Source: an uncultured virus (IMG/VR IMGVR_UViG_3300011912_000001)
Taxonomy: Duplodnaviria; Heunggongvirae; Uroviricota; Caudoviricetes
Direction: 5' to 3' (one strand)
Length of the DNA: 51,343 bases
IMG/VR virus record: IMGVR_UViG_3300011912_000001
Part shown: positions 6,145-48,905 of the stretch, one piece after another
How the letters are laid out: every line of letters begins with the position of its first letter
Position numbering within the stretch: position 1 is the first letter of the stretch
The notes under the pieces: model-generated
Seen by the model: the letters and a program-made list of their open reading frames with translations, nothing else
Databases searched by the model: none
Told to the model about the DNA's origin: nothing
Made by a program: the position numbers and the translations under genes

Positions 6145-6159
6145 AGACAACAGCCTTTC

Positions 6160-7067: not shown

Positions 7068-7082
7068 TTAGCTTCCTCCTTT

Positions 7083-7622
7083 CTATAAACTAAGACGCGG
7101 TGACGATGTGTCAACGAAAAATTTTAAATAGGGAGCGACATGTTTTTGATAAGTGCGAGTTTTCATCCAAAAGTCTGTCGTGCTTTGTTGTATCCAGAAG
7201 TTTGCTTTCTCGATGGATTCGACATCAAAGTTATGGTTGAGGTGTTTAATAGATACTGCATCAAAACTAGAGAAAGGAAGGGCTTCGACATGGCTCAGAA
7301 CAAAAGAACAAAAAATATCGTAAGCCCGGCGATATCCTTGAAGAGAAGATTGTAAAGTTGGGATTGTAGCATTGTTTGTAACTAGATAGCGCTTTCCTGT
7401 AACTCCACAGGTCACAGAAATCTGTATAGAGTAAGCGTTATTTTCGACTTCTCTCCCACCCATGCTAATAGTTATAGGAAGTCGTTCTTCCTTATAAGAA
7501 AAGATGAAATCAGAAGGAAGTCCGTCGATGCAAAGCGTGTCATACATCTCCATAGCTAGTCGGACATGGTTCTCATTCATCTTTCTTAAAGCTGAGAAAA
7601 ACGGATTTTGTGGCGGCTCCAA
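7083..7622 (-). CDS. Orphan family B protein, tag FVDTSSPRLSL
   Basis: TTG 7622 after AAGGAGG; AMEMYDTL..DGLPSDFIF...FWMKTRTYQ. Confidence 0.75.
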   Translation of the reverse strand: MEPPQNPFFSALRKMNENHVRLAMEMYDTLCIDGLPSDFIFSYKEERLPITISMGGREVENNAYSIQISVTCGVTGKRYLVTNNATIPTLQSSLQGYRRAYDIFCSFVLSHVEALPFSSFDAVSIKHLNHNFDVESIEKANFWIQQSTTDFWMKTRTYQKHVAPYLKFFVDTSSPRLSL

Positions 7623-19301: not shown

Positions 19302-22300
19302 TTAGACTTCAAATAGATGTTTGTTGACACGTTTCGGAATCGTGAGCTTATCGAGGATAAGGCTTCGGTCATCCCGTTGCGGGTTGTACTTGAAGTTGCA
19401 TTCGACTTTGACAAGCATGTCTTTTTTGATGATGCCGCGCACGTCCGCATACGTCATCGGGAAGCAGACCATGTCTCGTTGTCCTTCCAAGAAATCGATT
19501 TTGATGAAGGCCATCGGGTCGCCTTTCTTGGTCAAGATTTCACGGACATCGGCGACAATACCACTAGAGAGAATCTTTTCACTATCAGGTACATTGTCCC
19601 AATCAACGGGAACGCCGATACCATCCAGTGGATGACCGCTCAAGTAGACACTGAGATAATGCTTTTCGGTTTCGAGTTTGGTCTTGTTGTTGAAGTGGTC
19701 GATTTCCGATGTTAAATCTTCATCGTAACCACGGAGCAGGTATGTCTGCTGTAGGATTTCATAGCGATTGAAGTGGTCCGATACCATCGTATCCAGTGCG
19801 CCTGATAAGGCAAGGGCTTTGATGGCGGCTTTGTTCAAGCCTTTCTTCGGTACACGTGCGGTCATGTCCTCTAAATCAAGGAATGGGCGCGCTTCCAGCA
19901 CATTTTGGATGGCGACGGCACCAAATCCTTTAATGGCTTCGAGACCAAAACGAATGTCATTACCTTCAATCGTAAAGCCTAGTTTCGAATTGTTGACGTC
20001 CGGCGGTAGAATCTTAATACCGTACGTCTTCGCATCTTGGATATACGCGGTGACCTTTGCTTCATCATCACTGAAGACACTCAAGAGAGCGGTAAAGAAT
20101 TCAGCAGGATAATACGTCTTGAAGTAAGCGGTCTGATAAGTCAAAAGTGAATACGCCGCCGCATGACTTCGATTGACGATTGCACCGCCTCTTTCGAGGT
20201 ATTTTAACTCTGCTCAAAGCAGACGGACTAGACTATATAATCACCCTCTATTGAGGGGACAGGCGCTTCGATTTAAGGGGTTCTCTCCCACCATTCAAAT
20301 AGAATGGCCCTACTCCAGTTGCACTTTTTTGTGTGGGTGTGCCAGTTAAGGGATAGTCGTTGAACCTTCTTCCTCATGTGTAGGAAGCTTGGATGCGTTT
20401 AGTTGATTGCCCAATCTTCTTCGCTGTTACCATACCGGACGCATTGCCGCCCGCCACCGCCTTATTACTAAGACGGCTTGGTGGAAGAAGCTCTAAGGGT
20501 CGTCCCCGCAATTCACCTGTTATTTCGGTCTGCAAGTTGCCTTGCAGTAGGACCTTCGTATAAGTGAGAGAATTTCTCTTCTTTACGAGGCAATGAAACA
20601 GTGGAATCCGCATACATATACTGATGAAGTTTACGCATATTGTGTCCTCCGGCAATGCAAAGGTAAATCATCTGTTCACTTTTTGAAGCCTTAATCGTGG
20701 ATGTAATATCCAAGCTCTGAAGAAGCTCTTTCAATTCGTGAATAAATGGGATGTTACCGATGATTTGCGCATTGAGATATGCGTATTTCTGTTTGTTAGT
20801 GGAAGCAGTCGTATTTACAAGAAATACAGAACCGTCGGCGTCAAAGTATCCCCGAATGTAATGCGGCATTAAATGAGTAGGAATTTCAGGAATTCCATCA
20901 TCATTTGCTTTTCTGCCATACTTGCGAATATCTTGACACATTTTCTTACGACAAATGGTAAGCCGCGCTTGTTCTTTGCTTCCTTCATAACCACCTCTAG
21001 TTGTTGCAATGTTCCCTGTGTATTCTACAGTGTTTGCAAAACGTCGGATGTGGTCTTGGTCAATGGATGTAAGAATCACCGTCCACGGTGCTTTCTCTGA
21101 AATGTATCCATCTCCAAACATGAACCCTAACCAGTATGCTTTTTCTTGTGAATCAATTGTCTCAAAGAAATCCGTGTTCACTGTAATTGCCATGTTAAAT
21201 CCCTCCCTACTAAAAGTTTACTATGGAAGGGTTTCAATAGCAAGTGGTTTATACGTTTTGTAATCCATAACCCACAAAGGGCTTGATAAGCTCAATTAAC
21301 TTATCAGCAGTGGCTTCATCGTAGCCTTGCTCTAATGTTCTAGCATGCAATTCTGGTAAAACTTGGTCCATTACTTTCTGGGATTTTTTTCCTGTAGCTT
21401 TCCTGAGCGAGTCCTGCTGTCCTTCAGTATAGCCACCAAATACACCAGCAAGTTGCATCAATTGCTCTTGGTAAATCATGATACCGAACGTTTTCTTTAA
21501 GACAGGTTCAGCGTCAGGATGGAAGTAAGATACGTCTCGCATACCATTCGCCCGCGCCTGATATTCTGGAATTTCATCCATCGGCCCGGGACGATATAAC
21601 GATAATCCTGCAATCAATGATTCGAAGTTGACGGTATCTAAGCCCTTAAACACATTGGACATTCCACTGCTCTCGATTTGAAAAATTCCCAGTGTTTTTC
21701 CATTTCCGATGGTCGAGTACACGGCATCATCATCGGGTTCAAAGTTATCAGGGTCAAGGGCAACACCATGACGTTCTTTGACCAAGTCCCGGGCGATGGC
21801 GACGACGGACAAGTTCTTCAGTCCTAGTAAGTCAAACTTCAAGAATCCGAATTCTTCAAGGGTCGGTCCATCATACTGACTGACCATCTCCCCTTCCTTC
21901 CCACGCATAACAGGGACGGTGCTTCCAATGCTAGAAGGGGCAACCAAAATTCCACAAGCATGAACGGAAGACGAGCGGGGCATCCCTTCTACTTTCAGCG
22001 CCATCTCAAAGAGTTCAGGATATTGTTCTGCATACTCTTGGATGGTCGGGACTTCCTCTAAACATTTTGAAATCGCATACGGTTTACCAAAGACAACAGG
22101 TACATGCTTATTGATTTCGGTGATGATAGTATGGTCGATGTTCAGACCACGACCAATATCTTTAAGAACAGCTTTCGTTGATAAAGAGGTATAGGTTCCG
22201 ATTTGAGAAACCCGGTCATGTCCATATTTCTCAACCAAATAATCAATGATTTCATGACGACGAAGGTAATCGAAGTCACTATCAATATCAGGGAATCCGG

Positions 22301-23926
22301 GCCGCTCTGGATTTATAAAGCGACTGAATAGCAAGTCGTNNNNNNNNNNTCGTATTTAATCGGGTCTAAGTTCGTAATCCCTAAGACGTAAGAAACAAGA
22401 CTTCCGGCGGCGGAACCACGTCCCGCACCGACTAGAATGCCATTCTCCCGGGCATAGTTGATATAATCCCAAACAATGATGAAATAAGCAGAAATGTTTT
22501 TGTCTTTGATGACCTTTAGCTCATAATTGAGACGGTCGATGTACGTCTCCATGTCCAAGTCTTTTTCAAGACATTTGCGGAAGAGACCGTCAGAAGCCAG
22601 TTGACGCAAATAGGTATCAAAATCATAACCGGCTGGTACATCATAGACCGGGAATTTGATTTCCGTATTATCTAAAGCGACGTTACAACTGTTCGCCACC
22701 ACCATCGTGTTCAAGACCGCTTCATAGGGAATCCCTTTGCCAAGGATTTCTTCCGTGCTCATGAAATAACAGGAATCATAGACACTGATGTCTCCCGCGT
22801 CCTCACTTTTCCCGATAGTAGTCAGGGAAGCGTGAATCGCTTTTTCTTCTTTCTTGAGCATGTGGACGTCGGTCGTACAAATAAGTGGGATGTCCATTTC
22901 TTTTGAGAATTCCATTAAGCGTTTATTGACATAATGCTGTTCGGGTTGGTCGCTAGGTTGAACTTCCAGATAGAATTCATCGAGGACGTCCGCATAGAAC
23001 TTGATTAAGTTTTTAGCGACTTTATCATACCCTTTGAGTAGACATTGACTGATGTCACTTCCTAAACAAGCACTGGTTCCGATAAGACCGGTCCCGTGTT
23101 CTTTTAAGAGTTTATAATCAATCCGTGGTTTGCGGTAGAAGCCATCCAAGAAACCAGAAGCACAAAGAGCAAGTAAGTTCTTGTAACCTTCGGTGTTCTT
23201 CGCAATCAATAATAAATGATTCATTTGCGGACGCCACTGGAAGAGGTTGTAGACATTCTTCTTCTCACGTACACAAAAACGCATGTTGTTACGAGTAGAA
23301 GCAGATTTACGAGCCGTGATTTCTTTTTTGAGCTTGGTAACAGGGAGTGGGGGTTCTTCAAGTTTCTCCCGTTCGGTTTTGATTTGATTCGCAAAGAAGA
23401 CATCGACTTGTGTCATCATCAATTTTGCTAACTTCTTATCTCCGATTTCAAGAAGACTCGTCAGGTTCTGGTCGAGCATCTCTTGCTTCGGGACATAGAA
23501 CAGACGCGGTTTGCCTTCTTCATCGAGTTCATAAGAAACTTTTTCAAAGTCTGCCTTTTTCCATGTGTGATGGGGCGTGATATACGCTTCCATCCCTAGA
23601 ATCGGTTTGATTCCAGCATCGATGGCGGCATGATAGAATTTAAAATGACTTGCCATGGTGCCGTGTTCACTGACACCGACAGCGGGCATGCCATACTCTT
23701 TGGCTAACGGCATCAAGTCATCAATGCGGGCGAACCCGTCAAGAAGACTGCCGTCAGGCGTATGCAAATGTAAATGAATTTGTTTTAAATCCTGTGAAAA
23801 ATCAGATAAACCTTTTTCTTGAATCAATTGTCGAAAATGGTCGCGGTTTTCTTCTAGAATCCGTTTCCCTTTTTCGATGTAGTCGGTTTCAGGCGCTTGG
23901 GCCCCAAAGGATAAATCCTGTACCAA
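19302..23926 (-). CDS. dnaE: DNA polymerase III alpha subunit; exons ~23926-21263 and 20176-19302 (~1170 aa spliced; start approximate)
   Basis: PHP (HLHLHT, GMEAY, TTDVH), [27 protein letters not shown]; spliced junction gives [15 protein letters not shown]-terminal OB fold. Removing the 10 N plus duplicated TCGT at 22340 restores the frame. Confidence 0.95.
20177..21262 (-). mobile_element. Group I intron in dnaE
   Basis: 5' exon ends in U (GGA T), intron ends in G; core AATTGCGGGGA, TTCAACGACTA, ATATAGTCTAG; P3 ACAGGTG/CGCCTGT; splicing rebuilds a TTC Phe codon. Confidence 0.92.
20513..21193 (-). CDS. Intron-encoded two-motif LAGLIDADG homing endonuclease
   Basis: [12 protein letters not shown] and [12 protein letters not shown]; own RBS GGGAGG; internal promoter TTGCTA-17-TAAACT (21243-21215). 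Confidence 0.9.
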   Translation of the reverse strand: MAITVNTDFFETIDSQEKAYWLGFMFGDGYISEKAPWTVILTSIDQDHIRRFANTVEYTGNIATTRGGYEGSKEQARLTICRKKMCQDIRKYGRKANDDGIPEIPTHLMPHYIRGYFDADGSVFLVNTTASTNKQKYAYLNAQIIGNIPFIHELKELLQSLDITSTIKASKSEQMIYLCIAGGHNMRKLHQYMYADSTVSLPRKEEKFSHLYEGPTARQLADRNNR

Positions 23927-25392: not shown

Positions 25393-26370
25393 TTACCAAG
25401 GTGCATCAGCAGATTCGACTTCTACAGCTCGTGTGCGCGGTTTACGTGATACTCGTTTCTTTGGTGCTGGAACCACAACTTTTGAAGGGAAGAACTGAGA
25501 AATCGCTGGGTTGTCAGGTGTCATCTGAAGAGCAGACATGAAATCTTCTTCCGTTGTCGAAAGCGTACGGAATGTCATGTTGTTGAGGTTATAGAAGATA
25601 GCGAAATGGTCGATGCCTTTCGTCAAATCTTGTGGTTTCGCAAGAATTTTGTTTGCAAAACCAAAGATGAGATTCGCCGCCGTCATGTTTGTGTGGATGT
25701 TTTGAGGAGCGGACTCCGCATTTTCCGCACATGACATTTCCGTTGGCAATTTATCTGAACCGTCCAACATCGACGGGAACATGTCAATGATTGATGGTGT
25801 CGACGGCGTCACCGGCGCACCAAAACGTTCGTTTCCAAACGTCGTCTCAAGATTTTGATTACGTACCATTTGAAGCGACAATACCACTTGTCCAGTCATT
25901 TCTTCGTTTCCGCTGGAAATAAAATATGACTTCGTATACGAGCGGTGTGCTTCTTGAATGAAGGCACGTGTTTTGTTGTTGTCGACACAATCGATGAAAA
26001 CAGGGCATGCTGGGTTTTCGTCATCTTGATGGACTAGACCACGAAGCATGTCGACCTCGACGATATAATCTGTCACATAGTCAATNNNNNNNNNNGCCAT
26101 GACTTCTGCTTTGTTTTTGTTCATGTCACGGTCGACGAAGTTTTGACGAATCAAGTTCTTTTCTTCGACAATGTCACCGTCAATGATAGTGAGGTAATGC
26201 GGGGTTAACCCTTCAAGTCCACGGATACGGTTTTGAATCGCAATTTGACGAGCAAGTTGAGGAATCAAATATCCACCGGTACCACCGGCACCAACGACGA
26301 TGAAGTGTTTCGATTGTGCATACATACCTGATAATTGTAAGCGCGGGCTAAACAGATTTGATAAGTCCAT
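25393..26370 (-). CDS. ThiF/E1-like Ubl-activating enzyme (PRTRC ThiF type; spans N gap)
   Basis: VVGAGGTG, DGDIVEEKNLIRQ, NKAEV, DCVDN, candidate catalytic Cys in SCAE. Confidence 0.9.
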   Translation of the reverse strand: MDLSNLFSPRLQLSGMYAQSKHFIVVGAGGTGGYLIPQLARQIAIQNRIRGLEGLTPHYLTIIDGDIVEEKNLIRQNFVDRDMNKNKAEVMXXXXIDYVTDYIVEVDMLRGLVHQDDENPACPVFIDCVDNNKTRAFIQEAHRSYTKSYFISSGNEEMTGQVVLSLQMVRNQNLETTFGNERFGAPVTPSTPSIIDMFPSMLDGSDKLPTEMSCAENAESAPQNIHTNMTAANLIFGFANKILAKPQDLTKGIDHFAIFYNLNNMTFRTLSTTEEDFMSALQMTPDNPAISQFFPSKVVVPAPKKRVSRKPRTRAVEVESADAPW

Positions 26371-26424: not shown

Positions 26425-29055
26425 TTACATCAAACGGGATGGGTCTTTGTAGTAGGCACTGAGTTCCCACGGATATTGAGAAGCTGTCAATTCGTCAAAA
26501 ACGCTTTGAATAGCTTCCACAACGTCAGGTTTTTCTTCGGTTTCGTCTTGAAATCGAAGCTCCACCTCTGATTCGCCGGGACGAAAATCCAGTAAAGAAT
26601 CTTGAGTAGATGTTCCTGTTCCGTAGTAACCATAGTCTTCATCTTCTGGATAGTAAGATTGAGGATTACTTGCCGTGCCGACGGCCGAACCGACCTCCTT
26701 TAGATTTGCTTGCCCCTTTCCCAAGCGGTTCAATTCCTCCGCTTGCGCCGCACGTGCTTTTGCTAAACGTGCTTCTTCTTTTGTCCAGAGGTCAAGTCGT
26801 GTTGCATATTGTTCGCCTGTTTCCGCCGCGCGTTGAATCGGACGATAATTCGTATGCCCAAGAGCAGGACACGTACCCACACCGGGTTTACGCTCGACGT
26901 ACATTTTTCTTACAGGGTCCCAATCTTTCCCTGCATTAGACGACCAAGCAGTCGAAGCAGGAGCGGTGTATCGCTTTGAGTGTTGTTCCATCCAATCAGC
27001 AGGGTATTCGAGTTGCGCCCAAGGACCTTGGTAATCCAAGTATTCCTCTTCCTCTTCTGTCGTGCCTTGTCCGACGCTGATAGCTGTTTCGAGCAAGTCG
27101 AGGTCACCTTCTACCATGTAGTCTGTGACGATACGAGAAGACGTCTTCATGCGTGGAATGTCAAAGACGTATGACATTGGTACGATAACGCGTGTGTTAC
27201 CGACAACATAACGCATTGTGAATGCTGGTTGTTTGTCGAGAACACGTCCCCATACAGCATAGAACTGTGTCATGTTTTCATTGTCATTATCTGTACCAGA
27301 GAAGAACGCGTTCATCGTGTTCCTTTTTGTTACTTCGGAAATTTATCATGTTTTCTGGACATGAAAACTGTCGCATCTTGATAAATGATATTGTAGAATT
27401 TCTGAACATCGGCTTTGGCGCCGAATCGCCACATGTGGATACCATTCGAGAACGTCATATATCCTTTAATGTCAAACCATTCAGAGATAGGAAGAAGAAA
27501 CTCTTCTGTTCCTCTGAAGCAGACATAGGGACGTTTCTGAGTACCACTTGTGACAACCATCATGATTGAACCATCTCCGTCAAAATAACCACGGATAAAA
27601 TGATGTTTTAAGTGTTCAGGGATATGCTGAATCATCGAGTCCATGGTGATAGATTTACGTTCAGTCAAACCATACTTCATTAAGTCAGAAGTCAGTTTTT
27701 TACGAGTGAATGTAATTCGTACCATGTTGTCTCGTTTTAAGTGAATAATTGGTTGCTGGGCTTTCATGGCAACTTTCATTTTTTCTAGGATATCAATGTC
27801 AGTGTTTTTGATAGTGATACTCAAATACACGACTCCGCGTCCATTGTCTTGAAGACAACCGTCAGCGGCAATGAATCCTAAGAAATAAGCTTTTTCTTCT
27901 GTATCAATCGTTTCAAAGAAATTTTCATCAAAAGAATAGAAAGAACGTTTTTGATGATTGCCATACTTTTTAACGATTGAAGAAACAGCTTGTTCATATT
28001 CACCAAAATGTTGAGCAATCTTATACACGCTCATACCCGATTCATGCATTTTCACGATATCGTCTTTCAAGTGCTCCAGTTTAAGTGGCAAAATAATCAG
28101 CTCCTGTATATGCATTAGTTGAGTCCTAATATCATAATACAATGAGTAGTGTATTCTGTCAATTTCCGGGGGTAGTCATTTCTGCTACCCTCTCCCCGTT
28201 CAAAATCAAAGCATATAGGGGAGAGCAGACTATCGCATACTGACCCTAGACCTCCGCTCCAACGGTCTTGCTGTCTAGGTAGTCTCCTTCGCTTAGTCGT
28301 TCACGGTCATAAAGGGATAGATTCCCACCATTGAATTATTTCACAACGATTCAATGTCGTTCCGCCCTGTCTACCGGCTTTCGGCATTCCAAGTCAATCA
28401 GAAGGAGTTTTACAGCCACATTCATTTAATGGCTGTGGATTTCGAGCAAGAGAGATAAGTTCTCTCGCAACCATGGCACCATCTTATCCATGTGGAACTC
28501 AGAAAGTGCGGCAGAGTTTGTTTGTTTTGGGCAATACATGACAAGTTGTCCGTCGACAGTCAGACCTTTGACTGGAGTTCCGTCTTCATATGTCTGTGGA
28601 AGGGCAACATTGTTATGGTTCCAGAAGAATAAGTTCGACGCTTCCGTATGGTCACGACGTTCAACATCACGGTACCAGCTTAAGATTTGGATGAGGTATT
28701 TACCCGGGATTTTAGGAATTGTTAAATGAACACCGGCTTCAAGTGCACCGACGCCCGGTAACTTCGCTTCATACTTTTCGACTTCTTCGATGAAGAGACC
28801 GATAGGTTTTTTCGTGATTTTAAAGAGACCATTGCTTGCGGCAACGAATGTGACTTCCTTCTCCAAACGTGGGATAAGGTCTTCAATCGTTTTGCCGGCA
28901 AAGAGACGGTCTGTAACTTGTGCGGCAACCGCTTCTTCGATTTGAAGGCGAAGAGCTTTTTGTGCTTCTGTTTCAACAGGTTTCGTTGTTTTTGTTGCAG
29001 TTGTAGTTGTAGTAGTTGGAAGTCCGATAGCGGCTTTTGCTTTTTGTTTAGACAT
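26425..29055 (-). CDS. JAB/JAMM metallo-isopeptidase (PRTRC protein A-like); exons 29055-28429 and 27321-26425 (~507 aa)
   Basis: Splicing rebuilds EIHSH-NTMNAFF-S-GT-D (HxH-x7-S-x2-D); upstream Glu in HTEA; long acidic C-terminal extension. Confidence 0.9.
27322..28428 (-). mobile_element. Group I intron in the JAB gene
   Basis: Exon ACAGCCAU pairs with IGS GUGGCUGU with U.G at the splice site; P3 CTCCTTC/GAAGGAG; P7 GACTA/TAGTC; terminal G at 27322. Confidence 0.92.
27330..28091 (-). CDS. Intron-encoded LAGLIDADG homing endonuclease
   Basis: YFLGFIAADGCL and FIRGYFDGDGSI; TTG 28091 after AGGAG; internal promoter TTGACA-17-TATTAT (28162-28134). Confidence 0.9.
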   Translation of the reverse strand: MPLKLEHLKDDIVKMHESGMSVYKIAQHFGEYEQAVSSIVKKYGNHQKRSFYSFDENFFETIDTEEKAYFLGFIAADGCLQDNGRGVVYLSITIKNTDIDILEKMKVAMKAQQPIIHLKRDNMVRITFTRKKLTSDLMKYGLTERKSITMDSMIQHIPEHLKHHFIRGYFDGDGSIMMVVTSGTQKRPYVCFRGTEEFLLPISEWFDIKGYMTFSNGIHMWRFGAKADVQKFYNIIYQDATVFMSRKHDKFPK

Positions 29056-29089
29056 GGGTAAATTCCTCCTAAAGTGTGGTTTGTAAAAG

Positions 29090-29455
29090 TTACCAGAAAA
29101 ACGTGAACGCAACCAATGAAGATTCGTCCAACGTTTCTGGTACTTCGATTTTGACTTCTTTGATGGCATAAGGCATATCGTTATCATGGTCGATAAAAAT
29201 GCGTTGTAAGGCAACGATATCATGAATGGTTAACCCGTCAAATGAGATATAAGAGACGGAGACCGTCATCGATTCTTTCATATCTTCTAGCACTTTTCGT
29301 CGCATTTGATGATAAGCGACTAAAGCATTTGATGATAAAGAAACCGGTGGTTGGTATCTGGCATTATGGGCAAGGTCGCTCCAGTCTTTCTCATACTGGA
29401 ACGAATCCCGCCATTTCCGCAAAAAAGCAGTTTTTGCTTTTTGAAAGAGGGACAT
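29090..29455 (-). CDS. Hypothetical protein inside the Ubl operon
   Basis: 121 aa, GGGAGG RBS. Confidence 0.7.
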   Translation of the reverse strand: MSLFQKAKTAFLRKWRDSFQYEKDWSDLAHNARYQPPVSLSSNALVAYHQMRRKVLEDMKESMTVSVSYISFDGLTIHDIVALQRIFIDHDNDMPYAIKEVKIEVPETLDESSLVAFTFFW

Positions 29456-29476: not shown

Positions 29477-30283
29477 TCAGTTCTCTTCAACAAAACGATT
29501 GAAGAAACTACCGACAGTTTTATCAACTGGAACTAACTGAGCTTCCGGGAACCGGGCGTCAGGATTCGCAAGCAATTCCGTATGCAAGTGATGGAACATT
29601 TGGTCCATGTGTTGAATGCGTTGGTTCTCACGAATCGATTCGTGTGGAGAAGCAAAACGACGGAAACGTCCGTCATCCAAGTCATTGTTAAATGCGGCGG
29701 CAAAGAATTGAGATTGTAAAGAAATCAATGCGGCAGGTGTTGGCATGACAGAATTCAAGTTACCAGACCAGCAAATGTTACCGCGACCGTACACGTTCGT
29801 AAATGGAGCACGGAACAAGGCATCATTTAAGCCTAAGACTTGGTGTTTAATCGCATGCACATAGACATGTCCACGAATTTTACGTGTGTCGTTGGATGTG
29901 ATTTCAGCGACGACGAACCATGCAAGAGCAGGACGTGGGATTTCCATTTGGGCGATACTACCACCATTTGTGAACGTGAAATTGTAATCATCGGCATCGC
30001 CATCATAGCGTCCCCGGTGTTCGTACTTAATTTCTTGACGGCCCGGAGGCGTCGTAATCATGTAGTACTCTTTGTTTCCTTTACGAGCAAACAATCGAGT
30101 TCCCCAGTCTCCCGGCAGGAGTGGAGTACGCATAGCAGTTTGCTGTTCAATGATTTGAGAAAGAGACTCGATAGTAATCGGTTTTTTATTACGAACAGCA
30201 CCGTTCACGATTTCAACGTAAGCGGCGCCGTTCTCAAGGGTAATGACAGCTTTATTGGTTTGAGCAGAAACTTGAGTGGACAT
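29477..30283 (-). CDS. Prokaryotic E2-like protein (Prok-E2 family D / PRTRC protein B-like)
   Basis: TPLLPG, PALAWF, LFRAPFTNVYGRGNICW (candidate catalytic Cys), FFAAAFNNDL. Confidence 0.8.
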   Translation of the reverse strand: MSTQVSAQTNKAVITLENGAAYVEIVNGAVRNKKPITIESLSQIIEQQTAMRTPLLPGDWGTRLFARKGNKEYYMITTPPGRQEIKYEHRGRYDGDADDYNFTFTNGGSIAQMEIPRPALAWFVVAEITSNDTRKIRGHVYVHAIKHQVLGLNDALFRAPFTNVYGRGNICWSGNLNSVMPTPAALISLQSQFFAAAFNNDLDDGRFRRFASPHESIRENQRIQHMDQMFHHLHTELLANPDARFPEAQLVPVDKTVGSFFNRFVEEN

Positions 30284-30307: not shown

Positions 30308-31939
30308 TTACATAACGAGATACGAAGTCATGCTTACAAATGGTTCAGTGAGAGAAGCCATGTGCGTTGCATCCGTATCAATCTGGATGATTTGTGGTGT
30401 ACCTTGGATACAATTCGTTTCCAAGAGACGAGAAGCAAGTTGTGACGGATTAAGACCTAGTTCAAGTCCTCCGACAGACGTACTGAGCGCATATTCATTG
30501 TCTCCTGTACGTGTGACACGGTATCCATTCGGAGATGGACGCAATTGGTCAAGTGGAATAGCAGGTTCTGCTTCCTGAACAGGTGCTTCTTCTGGGAGAG
30601 GAGCCGCTGTCGGTGCCACTTCTGCTTGTTCTTGTGGAACGATACCATGACGCGCAAGCAAGTCTTCTAGAGAGATGCTTTCTTGTGTCGCTTGAGCTTG
30701 TGGCGTAGAAGGCGTCTCTGTGATTTCAACAGAAGCCACAGAAGTCGTTGTACGGACAGATGCCACCATATCAATCGCTTGTTGGCGTTCTGGCGTCATC
30801 GCTTCTTCACCTTCGTAGACGTCAGAGTATTGTGCAAATGTTGCTTTGAACAAGTCCATGTTCATCTCAACGTTAAAGAACTCATTGATGGAAATGATAT
30901 TGCCTTCACCGTATCCTGTAACTTTACCGATAACCGGGTCTTCGTAGCCTTCAACAAGCGGTGGGTCAACGACAGGAGAGATGATGTTGGCAAACCATGT
31001 ACCAGAAGATGTCTTCGACTCATACAAGTAGAGTTCAGCGCCGATTGGAACATGTGGAGCCGTTTCAAGCGGATAAACGAGTTGGTCGAGACCTTTTTCT
31101 TCCATGAAAAGACCAGCTTCTTCAGAGAGACCGCGAATCTGTTCACGAGAGAAGATTTTGTTCTGTTTGTACCATTCGTTGAAGATGTCAAATTGCGCCT
31201 GACGCGTTTCTTGTGTGCGCTGGTAGAAGGATTCAATGTGCTCATCCATTTCTACTTTCAACCCGTCATACATTTCTCCTAAGAGTAACGAGTGACTTGT
31301 ATACGCAAACAATTTACGAATGATGTTCGGAAGCTTCAAGCGGCGGGCTTGTGCCGTCCGTGATGTTTCAGGACTGTAGATTTGTTCCGATAAACGATGC
31401 AAGGCATCATTGTCGATTTTGATGTGCGCATAATCATTGCCACGGACATTCACCAACTCTAGATAACGACGTTGTCCGTCATTCAAGTTGTTGATGTCAT
31501 TTTTTGCAGAATGATAGGCGGTGACAATCGTGTTCATTTTTGGATATTTGTCATTGAAGTACTTATTCCAGTACTGGTCTTCTTGATAAACATGGGCAAC
31601 ACGGTCCGCATTCGCTACCATATCTTCAGAAAGACGAAGACTGAAGACTTGACGTCCGGGACGAAGTTGCAGATGCGGGGCAAAACGTTCCGCATACATC
31701 GTTACCATCTGAATGTAGTTTTGTTTAAACGTCTCAAAATCAGAAGCAGGTAACAAGCTCGATAAATCAAGCGATTGACTGACGTGCGCATTCGGGAACT
31801 GTAAAGTTTCAGCGACTTGGAGAGGTAAGTCAATGACTTCTGCTAAACGACTCACAAGTGTACTATATTCTTCTTTCGAATCTTTATAGAACGAAAGACT
31901 AGAAAGTTTTGTAGAATATTCAGGAGAAAAAACATTCAT
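30308..31939 (-). CDS. Large unknown protein in the Ubl operon
   Basis: 543 aa, AAGGAGG RBS, P/E/A-rich linker before a short C-terminal domain. Confidence 0.85.
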   Translation of the reverse strand: MNVFSPEYSTKLSSLSFYKDSKEEYSTLVSRLAEVIDLPLQVAETLQFPNAHVSQSLDLSSLLPASDFETFKQNYIQMVTMYAERFAPHLQLRPGRQVFSLRLSEDMVANADRVAHVYQEDQYWNKYFNDKYPKMNTIVTAYHSAKNDINNLNDGQRRYLELVNVRGNDYAHIKIDNDALHRLSEQIYSPETSRTAQARRLKLPNIIRKLFAYTSHSLLLGEMYDGLKVEMDEHIESFYQRTQETRQAQFDIFNEWYKQNKIFSREQIRGLSEEAGLFMEEKGLDQLVYPLETAPHVPIGAELYLYESKTSSGTWFANIISPVVDPPLVEGYEDPVIGKVTGYGEGNIISINEFFNVEMNMDLFKATFAQYSDVYEGEEAMTPERQQAIDMVASVRTTTSVASVEITETPSTPQAQATQESISLEDLLARHGIVPQEQAEVAPTAAPLPEEAPVQEAEPAIPLDQLRPSPNGYRVTRTGDNEYALSTSVGGLELGLNPSQLASRLLETNCIQGTPQIIQIDTDATHMASLTEPFVSMTSYLVM

Positions 31940-31960: not shown

Positions 31961-32294
31961 TTAGACAAAGTCATCTTCTTCCAGTTCGGTTGCGACTGGT
32001 TCGATGCGACTTAATCGGAGTAACATACTTTCTTCTCGTTGTAAGGTACGAGAAGAATAATCACGAAATGATGAGATAAAATCACTGATGCTCATACCAC
32101 GGTTCAATGATTGAAGATTCGAGAGCGCCTGTTCAACGTTCGTATCCTCTGAAGGGAAAATACCTTCGAACCGATGGTGTTCACGATTAGAAGAAGCTTN
32201 NNNNNNNNNNNATAATTTCATTTTGATTGCTACGAAACTCTTCTGCTGTTTGCGCAATAGGTTCCATTGATGGTTCAACAGTAGGTTCTGCCAT
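31961..32294 (-). CDS. Hypothetical protein (spans N gap)
   Basis: ATG 32294 (MAEPTVEPS...) after AAAGGAG; continues past the gap in the 31961 frame. Confidence 0.6.
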
Positions 32295-32406: not shown

Positions 32407-32925
32407 TCAGTTCCCTTTTGTACCCGCACGAACAACAAAGTGGAACTCTCCGTTACGGAGTTCAACTGACGCACCCGAAAGTTCTGGGTAGATTTGCTTC
32501 AACGCGTCCTTTGCTTGTTCTGGTGTTGTACCAGCCGGAAGGTCGATACGCGTGCCGTTGTAAACAGCGACAGCGCCCGCACCTTTCGTACCTGCACGGA
32601 CGACGAAGTGGAATTCGCCGTTACGAAGCTCGACTGATGCGCCTGAGAGCTCAGGGTAGATTTGTTTCAATGCATCTTTCGCTTGCTCCGGTGTAGTACC
32701 AGCTGGTAAATCAATGCGTGTTCCGTTGTACACTGCAACCGCACCAGACGATTGCGCGCCTTTAGTACCCGCTTTGACTTCGAACGTGATTGTGTCGCCG
32801 TTTTGTACTGCACGAGCGTTTGCAAGTTCTGGGTAGATTTGCTTGAGGGCATCTTTCGCCGCTTCCGCTGTAGTACCTGCTGGTAAATCGATAGTTGTAC
32901 CGTTGTAGATTGCTTTCATTGACAT
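32407..32925 (-). CDS. Tandem tri-ubiquitin-like precursor (Prok_Ub / PRTRC protein C-like)
   Basis: Three ~55 aa repeats YNGT.IDLP...QIYPEL...AGTKG; last repeat followed by a single Asn. Confidence 0.9.
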   Translation of the reverse strand: MSMKAIYNGTTIDLPAGTTAEAAKDALKQIYPELANARAVQNGDTITFEVKAGTKGAQSSGAVAVYNGTRIDLPAGTTPEQAKDALKQIYPELSGASVELRNGEFHFVVRAGTKGAGAVAVYNGTRIDLPAGTTPEQAKDALKQIYPELSGASVELRNGEFHFVVRAGTKGN

Positions 32926-33062
32926 GTTGAAAAACCTCCGATAAATGATTTTATTTTGGGCAATCTTGCCCGTTCAACTCCCGTGGTATCGGAGCTGGCA
33001 CGGAAGCTGAACGGAAAAGAATCCTCTCAAAATAAAAAATAAGTATTTTTAAACCTTTTTAG

Positions 33063-33152
33063 AAGGGGCGTAGCCCCGGCTTTCTTTAAAGCTTTTAAAG
33101 CTTTTAGCCAGTATATCATTTAAACATAAAAACAAGGGACGTAGTCCCGGCT
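33063..33152. repeat. Two hairpin repeat copies upstream of the tri-Ubl gene
   Basis: 33063-33081 exact copy; 33134-33152 GGGAC-GTA-GTCCC carries a compensatory change; extended -10 TGATATACT lies between them. Confidence 0.85.
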
Positions 33153-33349
33153 TTCTTTTAAAAAATAAAATAGGACGGATAAACCTGCAAGTCCATACGC
33201 CCTATCTTGATGTCCGCTAAAACTCAAATAAAAGCGGACGGTTGCCACTGCCATGGCGCCTTCTCTTTCTGTATTGGCCGTACAGTCAAAAAAGGGTAAG
33301 TCGAATAGGAGATGCTACAAAGAAAAAAAAGAAAAAGAAAGTAGTAAGG

Positions 33350-33585
33350 TTGGTGGGAGTTTCCGCTCCCATAATGGAATAAGACGCACAGTTTACCACG
33401 ACCATGCGCCTCATCAACTGAAGCTGTGTGTGTGAGAGGTGTAGGATAGGTTTGGTGGGGTGCCCCCCATAATAGCGTTAGGCATGGCGGAGAACCATAC
33501 CTAACTAGACGTGTAGACCCGTAGAAGTGTACGTAAAGCACGTAACTACGCTTAAATCTTTGGCGGGAGTTTCCGCTCCCATGAT
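33350..33585. repeat. Three hairpin-containing direct repeats at ~100 bp spacing
   Basis: TTGG[TC]GGGAGTTTCCGCTCCCAT[AG]AT at ~33350 and ~33560; shorter TTGGTGGGGTGCCCCCCATAAT at ~33452. Confidence 0.8.
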
Positions 33586-33662
33586 AAGAAGAGATTGTAC
33601 CAGCGAAGGGGTGCCTAGAGTACAATCTCTAAACGATTAAAAATGATTTTAATCATTAAAAG

Positions 33663-33681
33663 AAGGGGCGTAGCCCCGGCT
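33663..33681. repeat. Dispersed hairpin repeat copy
   Basis: AAGGGGCGTAGCCCCGGCT just after the stop of the 33694 gene. Confidence 0.9.
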
Positions 33682-33693
33682 TTCCTTTGTCTT

Positions 33694-36146: not shown

Positions 36147-36713
36147 CTAAAGGGTTAAACGAGGACCTTGAACGCGTTGGAGTTGAGGGCTCCGTATAGT
36201 CTCCATCAAGTTTCTGATGGATTTTAAAGCGTCGCGTTGATAGGTACGCGCCATGATTTTGCGTTTAGAAGAAGTATTAAAATTCGTTTTCTTGCCATAG
36301 ATACCAACATAGGGAGGGTCATCTGTTTCGGTGACAGGCATTGCCGCCAACGCTTCGTCAACATTAGAAACTAAAATCATGCTAGTTGGAAAGTAATATT
36401 TAACGGCAGGACCTAAGGTCAAGGTTGCTTCTCGAATGCCTCGCGTATCAAAAGTGCGTTCATGTACATTATAATACTTGAGAAGCAAATCAAAGGCATA
36501 TTTCCGAACAATGGGATATAAATCATTGGAAAAATCAAAACGTGGAGTAAAAGTAAAAGGATTCTTATATAAAATAAAGAGACCGTAGGCATACTCTCCA
36601 TCAAATTCTCGAATGCTGACGATAATACCCAAGGATTGATGCTTCATATGAAAATGAGAAGAGCTAGAAAGACTGGAAGGACGAACGATGTCGCCGATTT
36701 CAAAGGATGCCAT
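36147..36713 (-). CDS. Orphan family C protein, tag LQRVQGPRLTL
   Basis: GDIVRP...HFHMKHQSLGIIV shared with neighbours. Confidence 0.75.
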   Translation of the reverse strand: MASFEIGDIVRPSSLSSSSHFHMKHQSLGIIVSIREFDGEYAYGLFILYKNPFTFTPRFDFSNDLYPIVRKYAFDLLLKYYNVHERTFDTRGIREATLTLGPAVKYYFPTSMILVSNVDEALAAMPVTETDDPPYVGIYGKKTNFNTSSKRKIMARTYQRDALKSIRNLMETIRSPQLQRVQGPRLTL

Positions 36714-36729
36714 GTGCACATCTCCTTTC

Positions 36730-37257
36730 TTAAAGTCGGAGGAATGGAATCGAAAGAGGTTGGAAAGGTTGCAAAGCAACGAGTTCCTTTAAGTGTTTCG
36801 TACGCGAAGCCATAAAGCGGTCGAAAGTGACATACGACTGAGACATTTGATTGTGTGCCAAGTGTGCGTTTACTAACATCCCTTCTTCGAAAGAAGAAAC
36901 CCGTTGAAGGTCTCTTTCTTTGACCTTGACACGGAGACGGTCGTATCGTTCTGCTAAAGCATAGACTTTATTGCTGTTTGAAGGAGTCGAGACCCTAATA
37001 AAATTCTCAAGGGCTGTGCGGCAGACACCTGAGTCGATTTTATAAAAAGAAGAAGTCAACCATGTATAGGTTGGTTGAAGGCCATGCGCATAAGGATTCG
37101 CATATAAACAAAGAATGACATATTCACGATTATGAACGTCAGGGTTTTTGACATGCAAGACGATACCAAAAGCTTGGTTCTTCGCATGAAAGTAATTCGT
37201 CAAATTACTCCCTCGTATAGAAGGAGTAGGAACGACAAAATCTCCGGGTTTTAACAT
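36730..37257 (-). CDS. Orphan family C protein, tag FQPLSIPFLRL
   Basis: GDFVVP...YFHAKNQAFGIVL. Confidence 0.75.
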   Translation of the reverse strand: MLKPGDFVVPTPSIRGSNLTNYFHAKNQAFGIVLHVKNPDVHNREYVILCLYANPYAHGLQPTYTWLTSSFYKIDSGVCRTALENFIRVSTPSNSNKVYALAERYDRLRVKVKERDLQRVSSFEEGMLVNAHLAHNQMSQSYVTFDRFMASRTKHLKELVALQPFQPLSIPFLRL

Positions 37258-37271
37258 ACAAGGCTCCTTTC

Positions 37272-37748
37272 TTATAAAAATATTTTGGGTAGATTGATGG
37301 AAGAAAAAAGACACAAATGGGAAAGATAATGCTCATGGAAATAGTCAGGGCGAAGACAATATTTCATGACACTGTTAAGGGGTATTCCATTTAAATGCGC
37401 TAAATCTGATAAAGCCTCTAAATAACCAGTAGAGGTCGGCGTCATCACTTTCAAGGAAGAAACCATTCGGTCTGGAGATACCAAATCATAATGAAGTAAA
37501 TTGGAACAATTTGTTGTGAAGTTCAAAGAATGATAGGTTTGCTTGCCTTTAAAAATATTAGAAAGAGTTTCGTTAATGGCAGTGCGGTCTCTTGTATTCA
37601 TATGAAAAGAATGATACTTAGATTGAATAACAAAAATACGAAGCGGCTCCACGTTCATAACAATGGCGAACATGTTATCTTGTTTTGCAAAAAAAGAGCC
37701 GGGGTTTTCTGAGATACCATATATGATATCGTGTAGTTTCAGTTCCAT
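37272..37748 (-). CDS. Orphan family C protein, tag FSSINLPKIFL
   Basis: HDIIYG...FFAKQDNMFAIVM. Confidence 0.75.
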   Translation of the reverse strand: MELKLHDIIYGISENPGSFFAKQDNMFAIVMNVEPLRIFVIQSKYHSFHMNTRDRTAINETLSNIFKGKQTYHSLNFTTNCSNLLHYDLVSPDRMVSSLKVMTPTSTGYLEALSDLAHLNGIPLNSVMKYCLRPDYFHEHYLSHLCLFSSINLPKIFL

Positions 37749-44153: not shown

Positions 44154-44504
44154 TCAAAGGGTACGGAATGATTTGAACCAACGTGGTGTCTGGGCATCTA
44201 AAAACGGGAAAATAGCGACACCGGTTAAAGAACGCGGTGCCACTTCGGTTTTTCCACTATCGTAGACGGCATAATGCGCAATTCTTTCTTGTTTGAGGCG
44301 GTCGATGGTATCCAGCAGTTCTTGTTGGTTCATGCCACACACAATCTTGCGTTGTCCATGGAACAAGAACCAATCTTCAATTTGACTGGCATCAGCTTTT
44401 CTTTTCGTCATGAGAATTAAACCGGAGGTGGCATGGGCGACTTGCGCCGCCACTTTCCCCGGTGACATGTTTAAATCGGTGTTGACAAGAATATATTGGC
44501 GCAT
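44154..44504 (-). CDS. Peptidyl-tRNA hydrolase, PTH2 family
   Basis: VNTDLNMSPGKVAAQVAHA, GQRKIV, DSGKTEVAP. Confidence 0.9.
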   Translation of the reverse strand: MRQYILVNTDLNMSPGKVAAQVAHATSGLILMTKRKADASQIEDWFLFHGQRKIVCGMNQQELLDTIDRLKQERIAHYAVYDSGKTEVAPRSLTGVAIFPFLDAQTPRWFKSFRTL

Positions 44505-44947: not shown

Positions 44948-45787
44948 TTATTTGTTCTTTTTGTCGACGATGATGTTGTCAGCGCCTGTAACTTCCACGT
45001 ACGAGCCATTCCATTTCTCTGTCTTCTTGTACTCAACGAGTTCAGAAGTAATCGACTTCGAAATTTCTTTGTTGGCTTCCGCTTCCGCTTTCGCTTTTGC
45101 TAGGATAGCTTTTGCTTCCCCTTCAGCGATGACGAGTTTCTTCTCTGCTTCAATCTTTTCATTTTGAAGTTCGAGTTTCTTTTTCTCGTTCTCTTGCGAT
45201 GCTTGGATGCGCGCATCAATTGATTTTTGTGTGTTCTTGTCAGGCTTTGGTGCGCCTAACGTGACTTCTTGGACAAGGAAGCCAAGCTCCTTGACTTTGT
45301 CTTCGTAAATCTTAGCGATTTCTGATTGGGCTTTCGATGAATCTTCACCATAAACTTCTAAGAGATTATATTTGCTGACAGTCTGGCGTGTAGCATCGAG
45401 TAGACGACGTTGCATGTAACCGGCTTCGATGTCTTCAACAGGGACACTGCCAAACTCTTTGTAGATACTGACGACTTTTGTTGCATCCACTTTATACGTA
45501 TACGATAAATCAAGGGTGATGTTCTTACCATCTTTTGTTGAAACAATCATATCTTTTGCATCGACCGTGCGAAGTTTTGTTGGATACTGAACGACGTTAT
45601 CGATAGGTGAAATCACGTGCCAGCCTTGTGAGAGAACATCGTCTTGGACACCGCCGTTCGCACTATAAACGATACCGACGTGACCATTATCTACTTTTTC
45701 TGTGAAAACGAAAAATCCGACAACTGCTAAAACTAAAACGGCGAAGGAAACGATTCCTCCGATGATACCTTTGGGTGTGAAATTCAT
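44948..45787 (-). CDS. SPFH/band 7 (prohibitin-like) membrane protein
   Basis: TM helix, GHVGIVY...GWH, STKDGKNI, AEGEAKA...AEAEAN, EKWNG. Confidence 0.9.
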   Translation of the reverse strand: MNFTPKGIIGGIVSFAVLVLAVVGFFVFTEKVDNGHVGIVYSANGGVQDDVLSQGWHVISPIDNVVQYPTKLRTVDAKDMIVSTKDGKNITLDLSYTYKVDATKVVSIYKEFGSVPVEDIEAGYMQRRLLDATRQTVSKYNLLEVYGEDSSKAQSEIAKIYEDKVKELGFLVQEVTLGAPKPDKNTQKSIDARIQASQENEKKKLELQNEKIEAEKKLVIAEGEAKAILAKAKAEAEANKEISKSITSELVEYKKTEKWNGSYVEVTGADNIIVDKKNK

Positions 45788-47722: not shown

Positions 47723-48286
47723 TTATTCAGATGTTTGTTGAAAGTGTTCACGAAGTGTTGTCAGAATAAAGCCTAAGCGGTTCTTACCACGCCATTGTTC
47801 AGGATGGTTTGCTTGTCGGTCGCTTTTCTTATGCCCGATGCCCCAAATTGTATCATAAGGAGACGCTTCGACGAAGACCAATCGTTTCGTTGATGGTTGC
47901 ATCAACTGTTGTTTCATGTCAGCATTTTGAGAAAACTTATGGAAGTTCCCTCTCCAGACGACATTGATGGATTCCTTATCCCACTGGTCTTTATCAAACG
48001 GAGAGACCGCGCGTCCTAAGGATTTGTATTGTTTCGGGATTTCTCGTTCGCCACCGACCGGATACGGAATCGCTAGAATCTTTTGAGCAGTGTCGGTATC
48101 ACCAAAAAACATGGCTTTCGAGTACATCATGTATTGTTCCATGCATGTGAATTCAATGCCATCGACAGTGAATAAAGAACGATGGAACTGAGAGAACAGC
48201 GAGACCGTCGTCCAAAAATAATGGAACTCCATGTCTTGTTGCTTTTCAATGACTTCTTGTTTCGTGAGTAAAGATACAGGGTTCAT
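47723..48286 (-). CDS. NADAR (YbiA) family N-glycosidase
   Basis: FSQFH, EQYMMYSKA, KSLGR, HKFSQN, EASPYDTIWGIG, GKNRLG. Confidence 0.92.
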   Translation of the reverse strand: MNPVSLLTKQEVIEKQQDMEFHYFWTTVSLFSQFHRSLFTVDGIEFTCMEQYMMYSKAMFFGDTDTAQKILAIPYPVGGEREIPKQYKSLGRAVSPFDKDQWDKESINVVWRGNFHKFSQNADMKQQLMQPSTKRLVFVEASPYDTIWGIGHKKSDRQANHPEQWRGKNRLGFILTTLREHFQQTSE

Positions 48287-48299
48287 AATAAACATCTCC

Positions 48300-48905
48300 T
48301 TATAAAGTGTTTTTAGGTGGAGCCGCATTCAAAAACATGTGATGCGGATGCTGTTTCATTTTATCTTGAAACGGTTTGAAATGAGCAAAGAATGGAGCAA
48401 AATAATGAAAATGTTCGGGTTGAAGCTGGAAGACAACTTCACTATTGAAACAGTTGAAGTGCTCAGCCGTTCTTAGCGTTCTCTTATCTCCAATATGCGC
48501 TATCATGTCCTCATAGGGAACAAAAGGTTCATCATCAGAAAAATCTTTCCATTCTGCTAACTTCTTTCCATGAACATAAGGAGAAAGTTCAAAACGAGAA
48601 AACCGATAAGAGTTTTGTGTCACATCAATACCGACAAGCTTGTCATAAGACTCGACGTAAACGATGGGAGTTATGAAGGTGACGGCATCTTGAGAAGAAG
48701 CATCAGAAGGAAGATAAATCAAAAAGACATCTTCTGGCTTTTCAACACGGCATGTATACGAATTATAAGAAGAGGGGCTTAGTATTTTTTGAACATATTC
48801 TGCTTGATATTGTTCGCGGAAAGCCCGATAAATGTCTTGATATTCGGGGATACTTTTGAAGTTAGGGAACAGTCTTCGTTCGGGCGGTGTATCATTCTTT
48901 TTCAT
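48300..48905 (-). CDS. Orphan family D protein, tag FLNAAPPKNTL
   Basis: ATG 48905 after AAAGGAG; FNSEVVFQLQPEHFHYFAPFF. Confidence 0.8.
   Translation of the reverse strand: MKKNDTPPERRLFPNFKSIPEYQDIYRAFREQYQAEYVQKILSPSSYNSYTCRVEKPEDVFLIYLPSDASSQDAVTFITPIVYVESYDKLVGIDVTQNSYRFSRFELSPYVHGKKLAEWKDFSDDEPFVPYEDMIAHIGDKRTLRTAEHFNCFNSEVVFQLQPEHFHYFAPFFAHFKPFQDKMKQHPHHMFLNAAPPKNTL

Follow-up and report, generated by a model that had tools for sequence, protein, structure and literature searches.

We report that an uncultured virus of the class Caudoviricetes (IMG/VR record IMGVR_UViG_3300011912_000001) carries a gene, poly-Ubl, which encodes three ubiquitin-like (Ubl) units head to tail, and that two of these units share one protein sequence over 55 residues in silently randomised DNA. 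The stretch that we analysed, hereafter the window, is 51,343 nucleotides (nt) long, and poly-Ubl occupies 32407-32925 on its minus strand. To our reading as a whole we assign a probability of roughly 0.58. Under it, poly-Ubl would be the tag gene of a phage Ubl conjugation cassette, its product would be a polyprotein that is cleaved, and the DNA of its units would be kept unlike.

Translation of the 172-amino acid (aa) open reading frame (ORF) bore out what the first-pass annotation had read from the letters, namely three units each ending in AGTKG with one extra Asn after the last Gly. The Prok_Ub/PRTRC_C-type units all lie on the minus strand and comprise unit 1 (aa 1-56; 32758-32925), unit 2 (aa 57-115; 32581-32757), which begins AQSSG, and unit 3 (aa 116-171; 32413-32580), which begins AG. 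They are followed by a single Asn codon (Asn172; 32410-32412), a putative blocking residue, and by the stop codon. Unit 1, described as divergent from the outset, is identical to units 2 and 3 at 33 of its 50 C-terminal residues. Gly is the C-terminal residue of each of the three units, and E2, JAB, and E1 genes lie at most 7 kb away on the same strand, which supports the earlier view of a head-to-tail poly-Ubl with a terminal blocking residue beside its enzymes.

Over 55 aa, residues 61-115 match residues 117-171 without exception, and this duplication of units 2 and 3 cannot be chance. Codon alignment showed that 37 of the 55 codons (38 of 165 bases) differ, with every difference synonymous, exactly as had been counted by hand. 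The two units have 77% of their bases in common, and their longest identical in-register run is 11 nt. The comparison of non-synonymous with synonymous divergence (dN/dS) that had been proposed as a check gave, by the Nei-Gojobori method, ~37 synonymous differences over 41.8 synonymous sites, a proportion (pS) of 0.88 that is too high to correct, and an effective non-synonymous change of zero; the 1.0 "non-synonymous" difference that the method returns comes from the path taken between TTA and CTT and is an artefact. Of the codons, 18 are unchanged, and most of these encode residues for which the gene uses one codon only. Between random spellings of the units, 34.3 ± 3.4 codons are expected to differ if usage follows that of the whole window and 37.3 codons if it is uniform, so that "near-saturated" was the right word for this divergence, which is a full randomisation of the DNA. 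When the gene's own codons were shuffled among same-residue positions, 30.2 ± 2.9 codons differed (P = 0.009 for 37). As evidence for a dissimilarity that is more than saturated, the window gene alone is weak.

Homologs of the Ubl protein were found, among 50,697 phage records, in only three jumbo Bacillus phages: KLEB27-3 (217 kb), WH1 (230 kb), and Edson (234 kb). A metagenome scan returned two loci, L003 and an ortholog (L002) that is 93% identical and ends after unit 2, with 11 unit-3 codons surviving. These 11 codons have a pS of 0.43 to window unit 3 and of 0.96 to window unit 2; the third unit of L002 thus sits with that of the window, and units 2 and 3 had parted at the DNA level before the two phages did. 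Ordinary concerted evolution or recent birth-and-death, in which the units would be identical through recent copying, is a very improbable explanation here, since the DNA of recently copied units would be alike, and not the 77% of bases and the short runs described above. Units also pair by position between genomes and not by genome. What can be said for recent copying is that the number of units varies from one to seven among relatives, that a 29-nt patch in Edson units 3 and 4 resembles gene conversion, and that the units of KLEB27-3 are somewhat more alike than shuffles.

The first-pass annotation had proposed either an old duplication under very strong purifying selection or a recoding that avoids recombinational collapse. 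Taken by itself, the first of these would mean extreme purifying selection with neither selection at the DNA level nor exchange between units. It would account for the agreement of 37 of 55 with random codon choice, for run-length tests that show no extra spreading of differences, and for KLEB27-3, which is without over-dispersion. Nonetheless, purifying selection alone does not explain the unit pattern, because the orthologs change residues at a lower pS while units 2 and 3 change none. Between the window and L002, unit 1 has three residue changes at pS 0.28 and unit 2 has six at pS 0.44, as against none at 0.88 between units 2 and 3. The protein can change, and the first proposal, which we now regard as improbable, is not sufficient.

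The same replacements also recur in several units, which again argues against purifying selection as the only force. Within the clade of the window, units 2 and 3 of one protein carry the same state: D and SG in the window, E and AN in P0001, D, A, EN, and D in P0002, and E..RS in both P0003 and P0005. Between WH1 and Edson, all 10 residue changes in units 2-5 fall at three positions, namely S/A at position 28 (4/4 units), L/V (or T) at position 1 (4/4), and V/I at position 3 (2). The S/A change in unit 2 took one base, altered where it stood (TCG to GCG), and in Edson unit 5 only the S/A codon is changed, from TCA to GCT, by two bases. Edson units 3 and 4 share their 29-nt identical run across the S/A site, and four clustered codons of Edson unit 4 differ from WH1 unit 4 and match the unit-3 spelling. 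From these spellings, we read the replacements as having probably been spread by very short conversion patches together with point mutation.

With regard to the second proposal, recoding against recombinational collapse, the WH1/Edson pair was the most informative. Their orthologous units 2-5 differ at 12/54, 22/54, 21/55, and 12/55 same-residue codons; non-orthologous pairs between the two genomes differ at 24-34 codons, and co-resident pairs at 31-35 of 55-57. We applied a label-swap test to the 53 columns that have one residue in all eight units, with the codons of the two phages swapped at random per unit and column. A unit that evolves independently once the phages have split should differ from a co-resident paralog no more than from the counterpart of that paralog in the sister phage, which gives T at or below 0, and gene conversion would make co-resident units more alike. 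Co-resident pairs differed in 371 of 636 comparisons and cross-genome non-orthologous pairs in 343 of 636 (T = 28; null 0 ± 9.25; P = 0.00065), where neutral independence under purifying selection alone predicts T ≤ 0. The recoding proposal gains support from this result.

Further observations are in the same direction. Codon shuffles gave 198/324 for WH1 against 182.6 expected (P = 0.008) and, more weakly, P = 0.066 for Edson, and in the run-length test the WH1 maximum alone gave a signal (P = 0.036). Silent divergence between WH1 and Edson orthologs is raised in units 3 and 4 (43/109) over the E1 and E2 genes (76/484; Fisher P = 2e-7), which purifying selection alone would not predict; it is not raised in units 1, 2, and 5 (34/162; P = 0.15). 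Codons 31-38 of window unit 2, a stretch that includes the AN/SG site, are all different from those of L002 (a run of 8 among 23/55; P = 0.013), and all but one of the silent changes in this run move unit 2 away from the unit-3 spelling. Together, these patterns point to selection for DNA dissimilarity between co-resident units.

A number of results weigh against this reading. The label-swap signal rests on one phage pair, and the same test between the window and L002 gave T = -1 (P = 0.75) from 46 usable cells, mostly of the divergent unit 1. The 37 differing codons of the window are not unusual among random spellings under window-wide codon usage (P(≥37) = 0.27). Its longest identical in-register run is not shorter than in shuffles (P = 0.27), and neither are the longest runs in Edson (up to 29 nt) and KLEB27-3 (up to 26 nt). 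The units of KLEB27-3 are less different than chance (140/300 against 156.6; 99.2% of shuffles reach the count). The four units of L008, a 239-kb IMG/VR contig, are only 66-78% identical as protein, and the identity of units is therefore not universal. On the protein side, a Foldseek search with the unit 3 model returned no match at E ≤ 0.001, and the best VIA-align score was weak (Z 5.0, with matches at Z 4-5, mostly to ubiquitin, UBL, SUMO, ISG15, and MoaD). Six relatives (P0031, P0033, P0039, P0040, P0051, and P0059) end their units in AQNKS, AQRKS, or AQNKA, without a Gly and usually with one more residue; if this AQNKS-type subfamily is cleaved and activated, its C-terminal chemistry must differ. 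Two other points on this side, the uncleaved Ubls of Bil and Bub operons and the label on the WH1 homolog, are considered below.

That poly-Ubl may be a precursor is suggested in part by its relatives. A word-index search returned 25 proteins and an exhaustive search 91 at E ≤ 0.001, which included three long low-complexity false matches. Unit ends were counted with a motif of our own in 107 proteins, of which eight were without a recognised unit end. One unit was found in 14 proteins, two in 48, three in 15, four in 13, five in 8, and seven in 1, so that the survey of repeat number that had been suggested earlier gave a range of 1-7 units with 85 multi-unit proteins. In 50 of these 85, at least one pair of units is at least 90% identical over the last 50 residues. 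The tail after the last unit (99 proteins) was absent in 15, one residue in 45, 2-5 residues in 23, and longer in 16, ranging from nothing to ~20 aa, and Asn was the commonest one-residue tail (16/99). The tail motif is kept in every unit, the internal ones included, and free-standing single units of 56-59 aa carry the same end motif. P0010 and P0014 are two different poly-Ubl proteins (245 and 180 aa) whose longest contigs have the same length (8173 bp), as are P0011 and P0015 (5910 bp), which suggests that some genomes carry two close poly-Ubl genes. No relatives came from viral-contig scans in which the query was the window protein, alignment A1, P0031, or P0026. Hits L006 and L007, from a viral-contig scan with P0007, were rejected as chance matches inside a large unrelated ORF, and L009, from a genome-contig scan with A1, as a chance match to an unrelated protein of an Actinomycetes metagenome-assembled genome.

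At the family level, poly-Ubl matched Pfam Prok_Ub PF14454 (29.1 bits; cut-off 25) and NCBIfam PRTRC_C TIGR03738 (52.1 bits; cut-off 45.95), the latter in two stretches. The Pfam scan gave no ubiquitin-family match at E ≤ 0.01, only Prok_Ub, a weak ThiS, and chance matches, and PHROGs gave weak unnamed families only. An AlphaFold2 model of the whole protein had a predicted local distance difference test score (pLDDT) of 58 and a predicted template modelling score of 0.31, with the linkers at 51-66 and 109-118 least confident (pLDDT <50). The model of unit 3 from a 16-row alignment was better (pLDDT 77.5) and had the order strand, strand, helix, short helix, strand, strand, with a disordered tail. 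The Foldseek top 50 includes the BilA Ubl (8tyz_B, 8tz0_E), MoaD, and ubiquitin, and a profile search of solved structures gave nothing meaningful (best E 0.023, chorismate synthase). The modelled unit is consistent with a minimal beta-grasp.

It is possible that the protein is instead not cut at all. In that case poly-Ubl would work as a three-domain beta-grasp scaffold, filament, or virion component, and at most its last Gly would be activated. We regard this as unlikely, with several points to be set on each side. Bil and Bub operons commonly encode Ubls of two or three beta-grasp domains, and the available text of PMC11601603 describes multi-beta-grasp Ubls that act uncleaved, as dimers and Ca2+-dependent filaments. 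The WH1 homolog, gp211, is annotated as a "virion structural protein", a label that also fits an uncleaved structural protein, and the AQNKS-type subfamily is without a Gly at its unit ends. An uncleaved protein is harder to square with the full tail motif of all internal units, with copy numbers from one to seven, and with free single units that have the same end. In a compact multidomain protein, one would expect the domains to become specialised, whereas the units here act as interchangeable copies that share replacements, and the linkers are predicted to be floppy. The cleaved precursor is supported by the tail motif in every unit, the variable unit number and tails, and the low-pLDDT linkers. 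The related bacterial JAB BilC, in what is available of PMC10557695, cuts its Ubl after a conserved Gly and also cuts a Ubl-GFP fusion.

The conjugation cassette lies downstream of poly-Ubl on the minus strand. A small ORF of ~111 aa (31961-32294), broken by a masked run of N (32200-32211), is in the position of WH1 gp212 and KLEB27-3 gp198, and a family scan found no family for it. It is followed by a 543-aa ORF (30308-31939) in the position that a ~510-560-aa ORF has in each related cassette; this ORF had no match in Pfam, PHROGs, NCBIfam, or PADLOC and no usable match in Protein Atlas, where the model pLDDT was 0.44. The E2-like protein (29477-30283) matched Prok-E2_D (PF14460; 42.6 bits; cut-off 25), with Cys171 and His139 invariant in 5/5 homologs. 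The ThiF-family E1-like adenylating enzyme (25393-26370; PF00899; 46.6 bits; cut-off 28.1), which contains a run of N at 26086-26095, is 44-45% identical to WH1 gp216 and KLEB27-3 gp194. The order poly-Ubl, small ORF, ~510-560-aa ORF, E2, JAB, and ThiF is common to WH1, Edson, KLEB27-3, and L008. A sulfur-carrier role of the ThiS/MoaD kind was rejected, since the cassette has an E2 and a JAB and genes for sulfur transfer were not seen. In GenBank, WH1 gp211 (the poly-Ubl; L001 8815-9714) and gp208 (6078-7553) share the structural label, and both sit in a non-structural region despite it.

The JAB peptidase gene is in two parts in the window. The 5' part (28429-29223, minus strand) ends in EIHSH, the first half of the JAMM motif, and was recognised by tblastn with WH1 gp215 and KLEB27-3 gp195 (49-50% identity); the 3' part (26425-27321, minus strand) starts at about NTMNAFFSGTD and holds the second half of this motif, which as a whole reads H-x-H-x7-S-x2-D. 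The split thus falls within the catalytic motif (EIHSH / xTMNAFFSGTD), which is intact across the insert. Against the intact proteins of WH1 and KLEB27-3, one piece covers residues ~5-189 and the other ~179-301, and JAB is uninterrupted in WH1, KLEB27-3, and L008. The intervening sequence of ~1.1 kb (27322-28428, minus strand, ends approximate) contains a LAGLIDADG endonuclease ORF (27330-28142). Because stop codons bound this ORF on both sides, the insert would seem to be an intron rather than an intein, and the latter was rejected; Rfam gave no group I intron at gathering score for the insert.

The cassette was compared with known systems. The class 6d operon of Iyer, Burroughs and Aravind (2006) consists of a Ub-like protein, a JAB, an E1-like, and an E2-like protein together with a fast-evolving alpha-helical protein, and is listed, in the available text, in bacteria with a single Ub-like protein (PMC1779556). 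Four of these five parts were found here, and the 543-aa ORF without a family sits where the fifth, alpha-helical part is expected. The likeness to class 6d and to PRTRC (TIGR03735-03738) extends to family matches, as the Ubl passes PRTRC_C, the E2 matches Prok-E2_D and PRTRC_B, and the KLEB27-3 JAB is annotated as PRTRC_A. The E2 scored 44 bits against PRTRC_B TIGR03737, under the cut-off of 131.45, and is related to it but not an equivalog. Pfam scans of 10 + 3 + 45 window ORFs brought up no ParB family, and only a GmrSD_N-domain protein in its stead. By its gene content as read from sequence, the cassette is of class 6d/PRTRC type, without a ParB gene and with an E2 under the equivalog cut-off. 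Unlike class 6d, it occurs in jumbo phages and its Ubl is a three-unit array (2-7 units in relatives).

Other systems were compared as well. The polyUbl of class 6e (Bub) and the Ubl3 of Type II Bil also have two or three tandem Ub-like domains beside an E1, an E2, and a peptidase (PMC1779556, PMC11601603). They are of a different Ubl family, and the Ubl3 proteins are reported in the accessible text to be uncleaved and to form dimers and filaments (PMC11601603). Class 6e has an inactive E2/RWD-like protein and a JAB-E1 fusion, whereas in the phage cassette the invariant Cys of the E2 is kept and JAB is encoded apart from E1. Membership of class 6e/Bub was rejected, with Cys171 invariant in 5/5 and JAB and E1 in separate ORFs. 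BilABCD, as far as the available text of PMC10557695 describes it, likewise has separate Ubl, E2, JAB, and E1 genes, and its JAB pre-processes the Ubl after a conserved Gly; it serves bacteria as a defence in which the tail proteins of phages are tagged, whereas the present cassette is phage-borne. In PADLOC-DB 2.0.0 (2023 library), the Ubl, the E2, the JAB halves, and the 543-aa ORF had no match, and the E1 had a weak one to E1-E2 (≤18.1 bits). The lambda/T1 proteins TAPI (Ub-like) and TAPK (JAB) are also a phage Ub-like domain with a C-terminal Gly and a JAB predicted to release it (PMC1779556, in the part available). Unlike the present cassette, which lies among replication-type genes, they are without an E1 or E2, have a single Ub-like domain, and belong to a tail gene cluster.

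The first-pass annotation had likened poly-Ubl to eukaryotic polyubiquitin genes as showing the same pattern. The likeness with UBI4, UBB, and UBC holds for the head-to-tail beta-grasp tags, the one extra terminal codon, and the variable number of units. Yeast UBI4 also ends in Asn. The phage units differ in having no detectable sequence relation to ubiquitin, in their length (56-59 aa as against 76), and in the divergence of the first unit. Silent differences between units of identical protein are likewise known from polyubiquitin, in the text available to us (PMC10457151). In the evolution of its DNA, however, the pattern here is the reverse. Polyubiquitin repeats are homogenised, whereas phage units within one gene are less alike than orthologous units, and even than the non-orthologous units of a sister phage.

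Drawing on the observed architecture, family assignment, synteny, and silent-site statistics, we infer the following pathway, from JAB cleavage into monomers to conjugation, targets, and the reason for the dissimilar DNA. The poly-Ubl gene would be transcribed from its own promoter, and hairpins behind the gene would partly stop transcription. The JAB metallopeptidase, once the intervening sequence has been removed, would cut after each AGTKG and trim the terminal Asn, thereby releasing one tag of the unit-1 type and two nearly identical tags of the unit-2/3 type, each of 56-59 aa with a free C-terminal Gly. The ThiF-type E1 would adenylate this Gly, and the E2 would carry the tag on Cys171 and pass it to lysines of phage or host proteins. 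The units would be held to one protein sequence by selection, with very short conversion patches occasionally spreading replacements. Their DNA would be kept as unlike as the code allows, as identical direct repeats of 168 nt would be deleted by recombination while the phage genome replicates.

Possible expression signals lie on both sides of the gene. A sigma-70-like promoter match (TTGAAC, 18 nt, TAAAAT; 32948-32977, minus strand) is a consensus match only, and the ~55 nt immediately 5' of the start codon are nearly unchanged in L002. The terminator that had been noticed after the gene corresponds to two terminator-like hairpins on the minus strand, at 32417-32392, overlapping the poly-Ubl stop codon, and at 32362-32341, carrying a T7 run. 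A strong hairpin lies directly 3' of poly-Ubl in WH1 and a weak one in L008, and a hairpin scan 3' of the gene in KLEB27-3 found none. The gene uses AAC for 8/8, TAC for 6/6, CAA for 7/7, CAC for 2/2, and ATC for 7/8 of the respective residues, as compared with 276/595, 213/601, 467/599, 121/436, and 322/758 window-wide. This codon choice suggests that poly-Ubl may be highly expressed.

Upstream of poly-Ubl, ~770 nt (32926-33693, minus strand) hold no convincing ORF. Within them, 33160-33645 folds far better than shuffles (-149.9 kcal/mol; z = -5.8), and there are three copies of a 41-nt hairpin element (33047-33087, 33118-33158, and 33647-33687), with both sides of the stems changed and the flanks kept in L002. 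This stretch may be a non-coding RNA or a set of terminators. Rfam gave no family in the window at gathering score and upstream of the gene only rows with E ≥ 0.4, and a tRNA scan of the window found none. Farther upstream, three slightly overlapping ORFs of 210, 194, and 158 aa (36147-37748, minus strand) have similar N-termini and no known family, and may be paralogs.

The precursor had been called bacterial in the first-pass annotation; the element is a phage. This conclusion follows from its polymerase and its Ubl, since the homologs of the former are closest in, and those of the latter were found only in, the three jumbo Bacillus phages, to which the window polymerase piece is 60% identical. 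All but four of the 80 ORFs called in the window are on the minus strand, and PHROGs and Pfam assigned phage-type functions (DNA polymerase III alpha, RNase H, nucleotidyltransferase, NinI-like phosphatase, and peptidase). The poly-Ubl finding thus lies in a phage and not in a bacterial chromosome. At the nucleotide level, blastn of the gene region against the 50,697 phage records gave no match. Parts of the stretch are carried in at least 20 sequencing-run entries from 14 studies (largest share, 0.30), with no RNA run among those listed. Contigs of the runs X1, X2, X3, and X8 showed relatives with ~87% identity, and variant bases in the relatives change unit 2 codons 94-95 to Ala-Asn.

Several other features of the window were noted. 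The DNA polymerase III alpha gene (19302-22334, minus strand) consists of two pieces (19302-20144 and 21249-22334) separated by an endonuclease ORF (20513-21193) of the same PHROG (phrog_4645) as the endonuclease in the JAB insert; in the annotation of KLEB27-3, too, the polymerase is given as two parts, on either side of an HNH endonuclease. A GmrSD_N-domain protein (10074-11225) lies ~14 kb from the cassette, and a PTH2 peptidyl-tRNA hydrolase (44154-44504), an SPFH/Band 7 protein (44948-45787), and a NADAR-domain protein (47723-48328) are farther along, all on the minus strand. In WH1, a NADAR gene is directly after the E1. Masked runs of 10-12 N are present at 32200-32211 and also at 9026, 12876, 22340, 26086, and 43170; the reading frame differs on either side of 32200-32211, where the masked length may differ from the true length.

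To our knowledge, work on ubiquitin-like conjugation in bacteria has until now treated it as a means by which hosts defend themselves against phages. In our literature search, no paper came up that describes this phage cassette or its recoded repeats, and the main text of a 2021 review that compares 224 jumbo phages, written by the group behind the Ubl operon classes, is without the terms "Ubl", "JAB", "ThiF", and "E1-like". The phage-borne polyprotein form of a PRTRC-type Ubl is real and unusual, and its silent-site pattern was not found described in the literature searched. The presence of a complete Ubl-E2-JAB-E1 kit in culturable jumbo phages (WH1, Edson, and KLEB27-3) raises the question of what the phage tags, and why. 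Somewhat short of an even chance, and offered here tentatively, is the wider reading that jumbo Bacillus-type phages run a tagging pathway of their own and came independently to the polyubiquitin design, with the genetic regime reversed: the repeats are held to one protein sequence while their DNA is actively driven apart against deletion and short patches spread replacements; the tag might be placed on virion proteins, in line with the label on the WH1 homolog, and might pre-empt host tagging of the Bil type. In its polyprotein form, the phage tag converges strikingly on eukaryotic polyubiquitin. The silent-site pattern also provides a rare natural test case, as selection at synonymous sites appears to keep the repeats unlike rather than homogenised. 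It bears on the long-standing question whether ubiquitin genes evolve in concert or by birth and death, and likewise on how repeated genes can be designed to stay stable. If the wider reading is true, a natural recoding would guard the tandem array against deletion in a genome that is prone to recombination.

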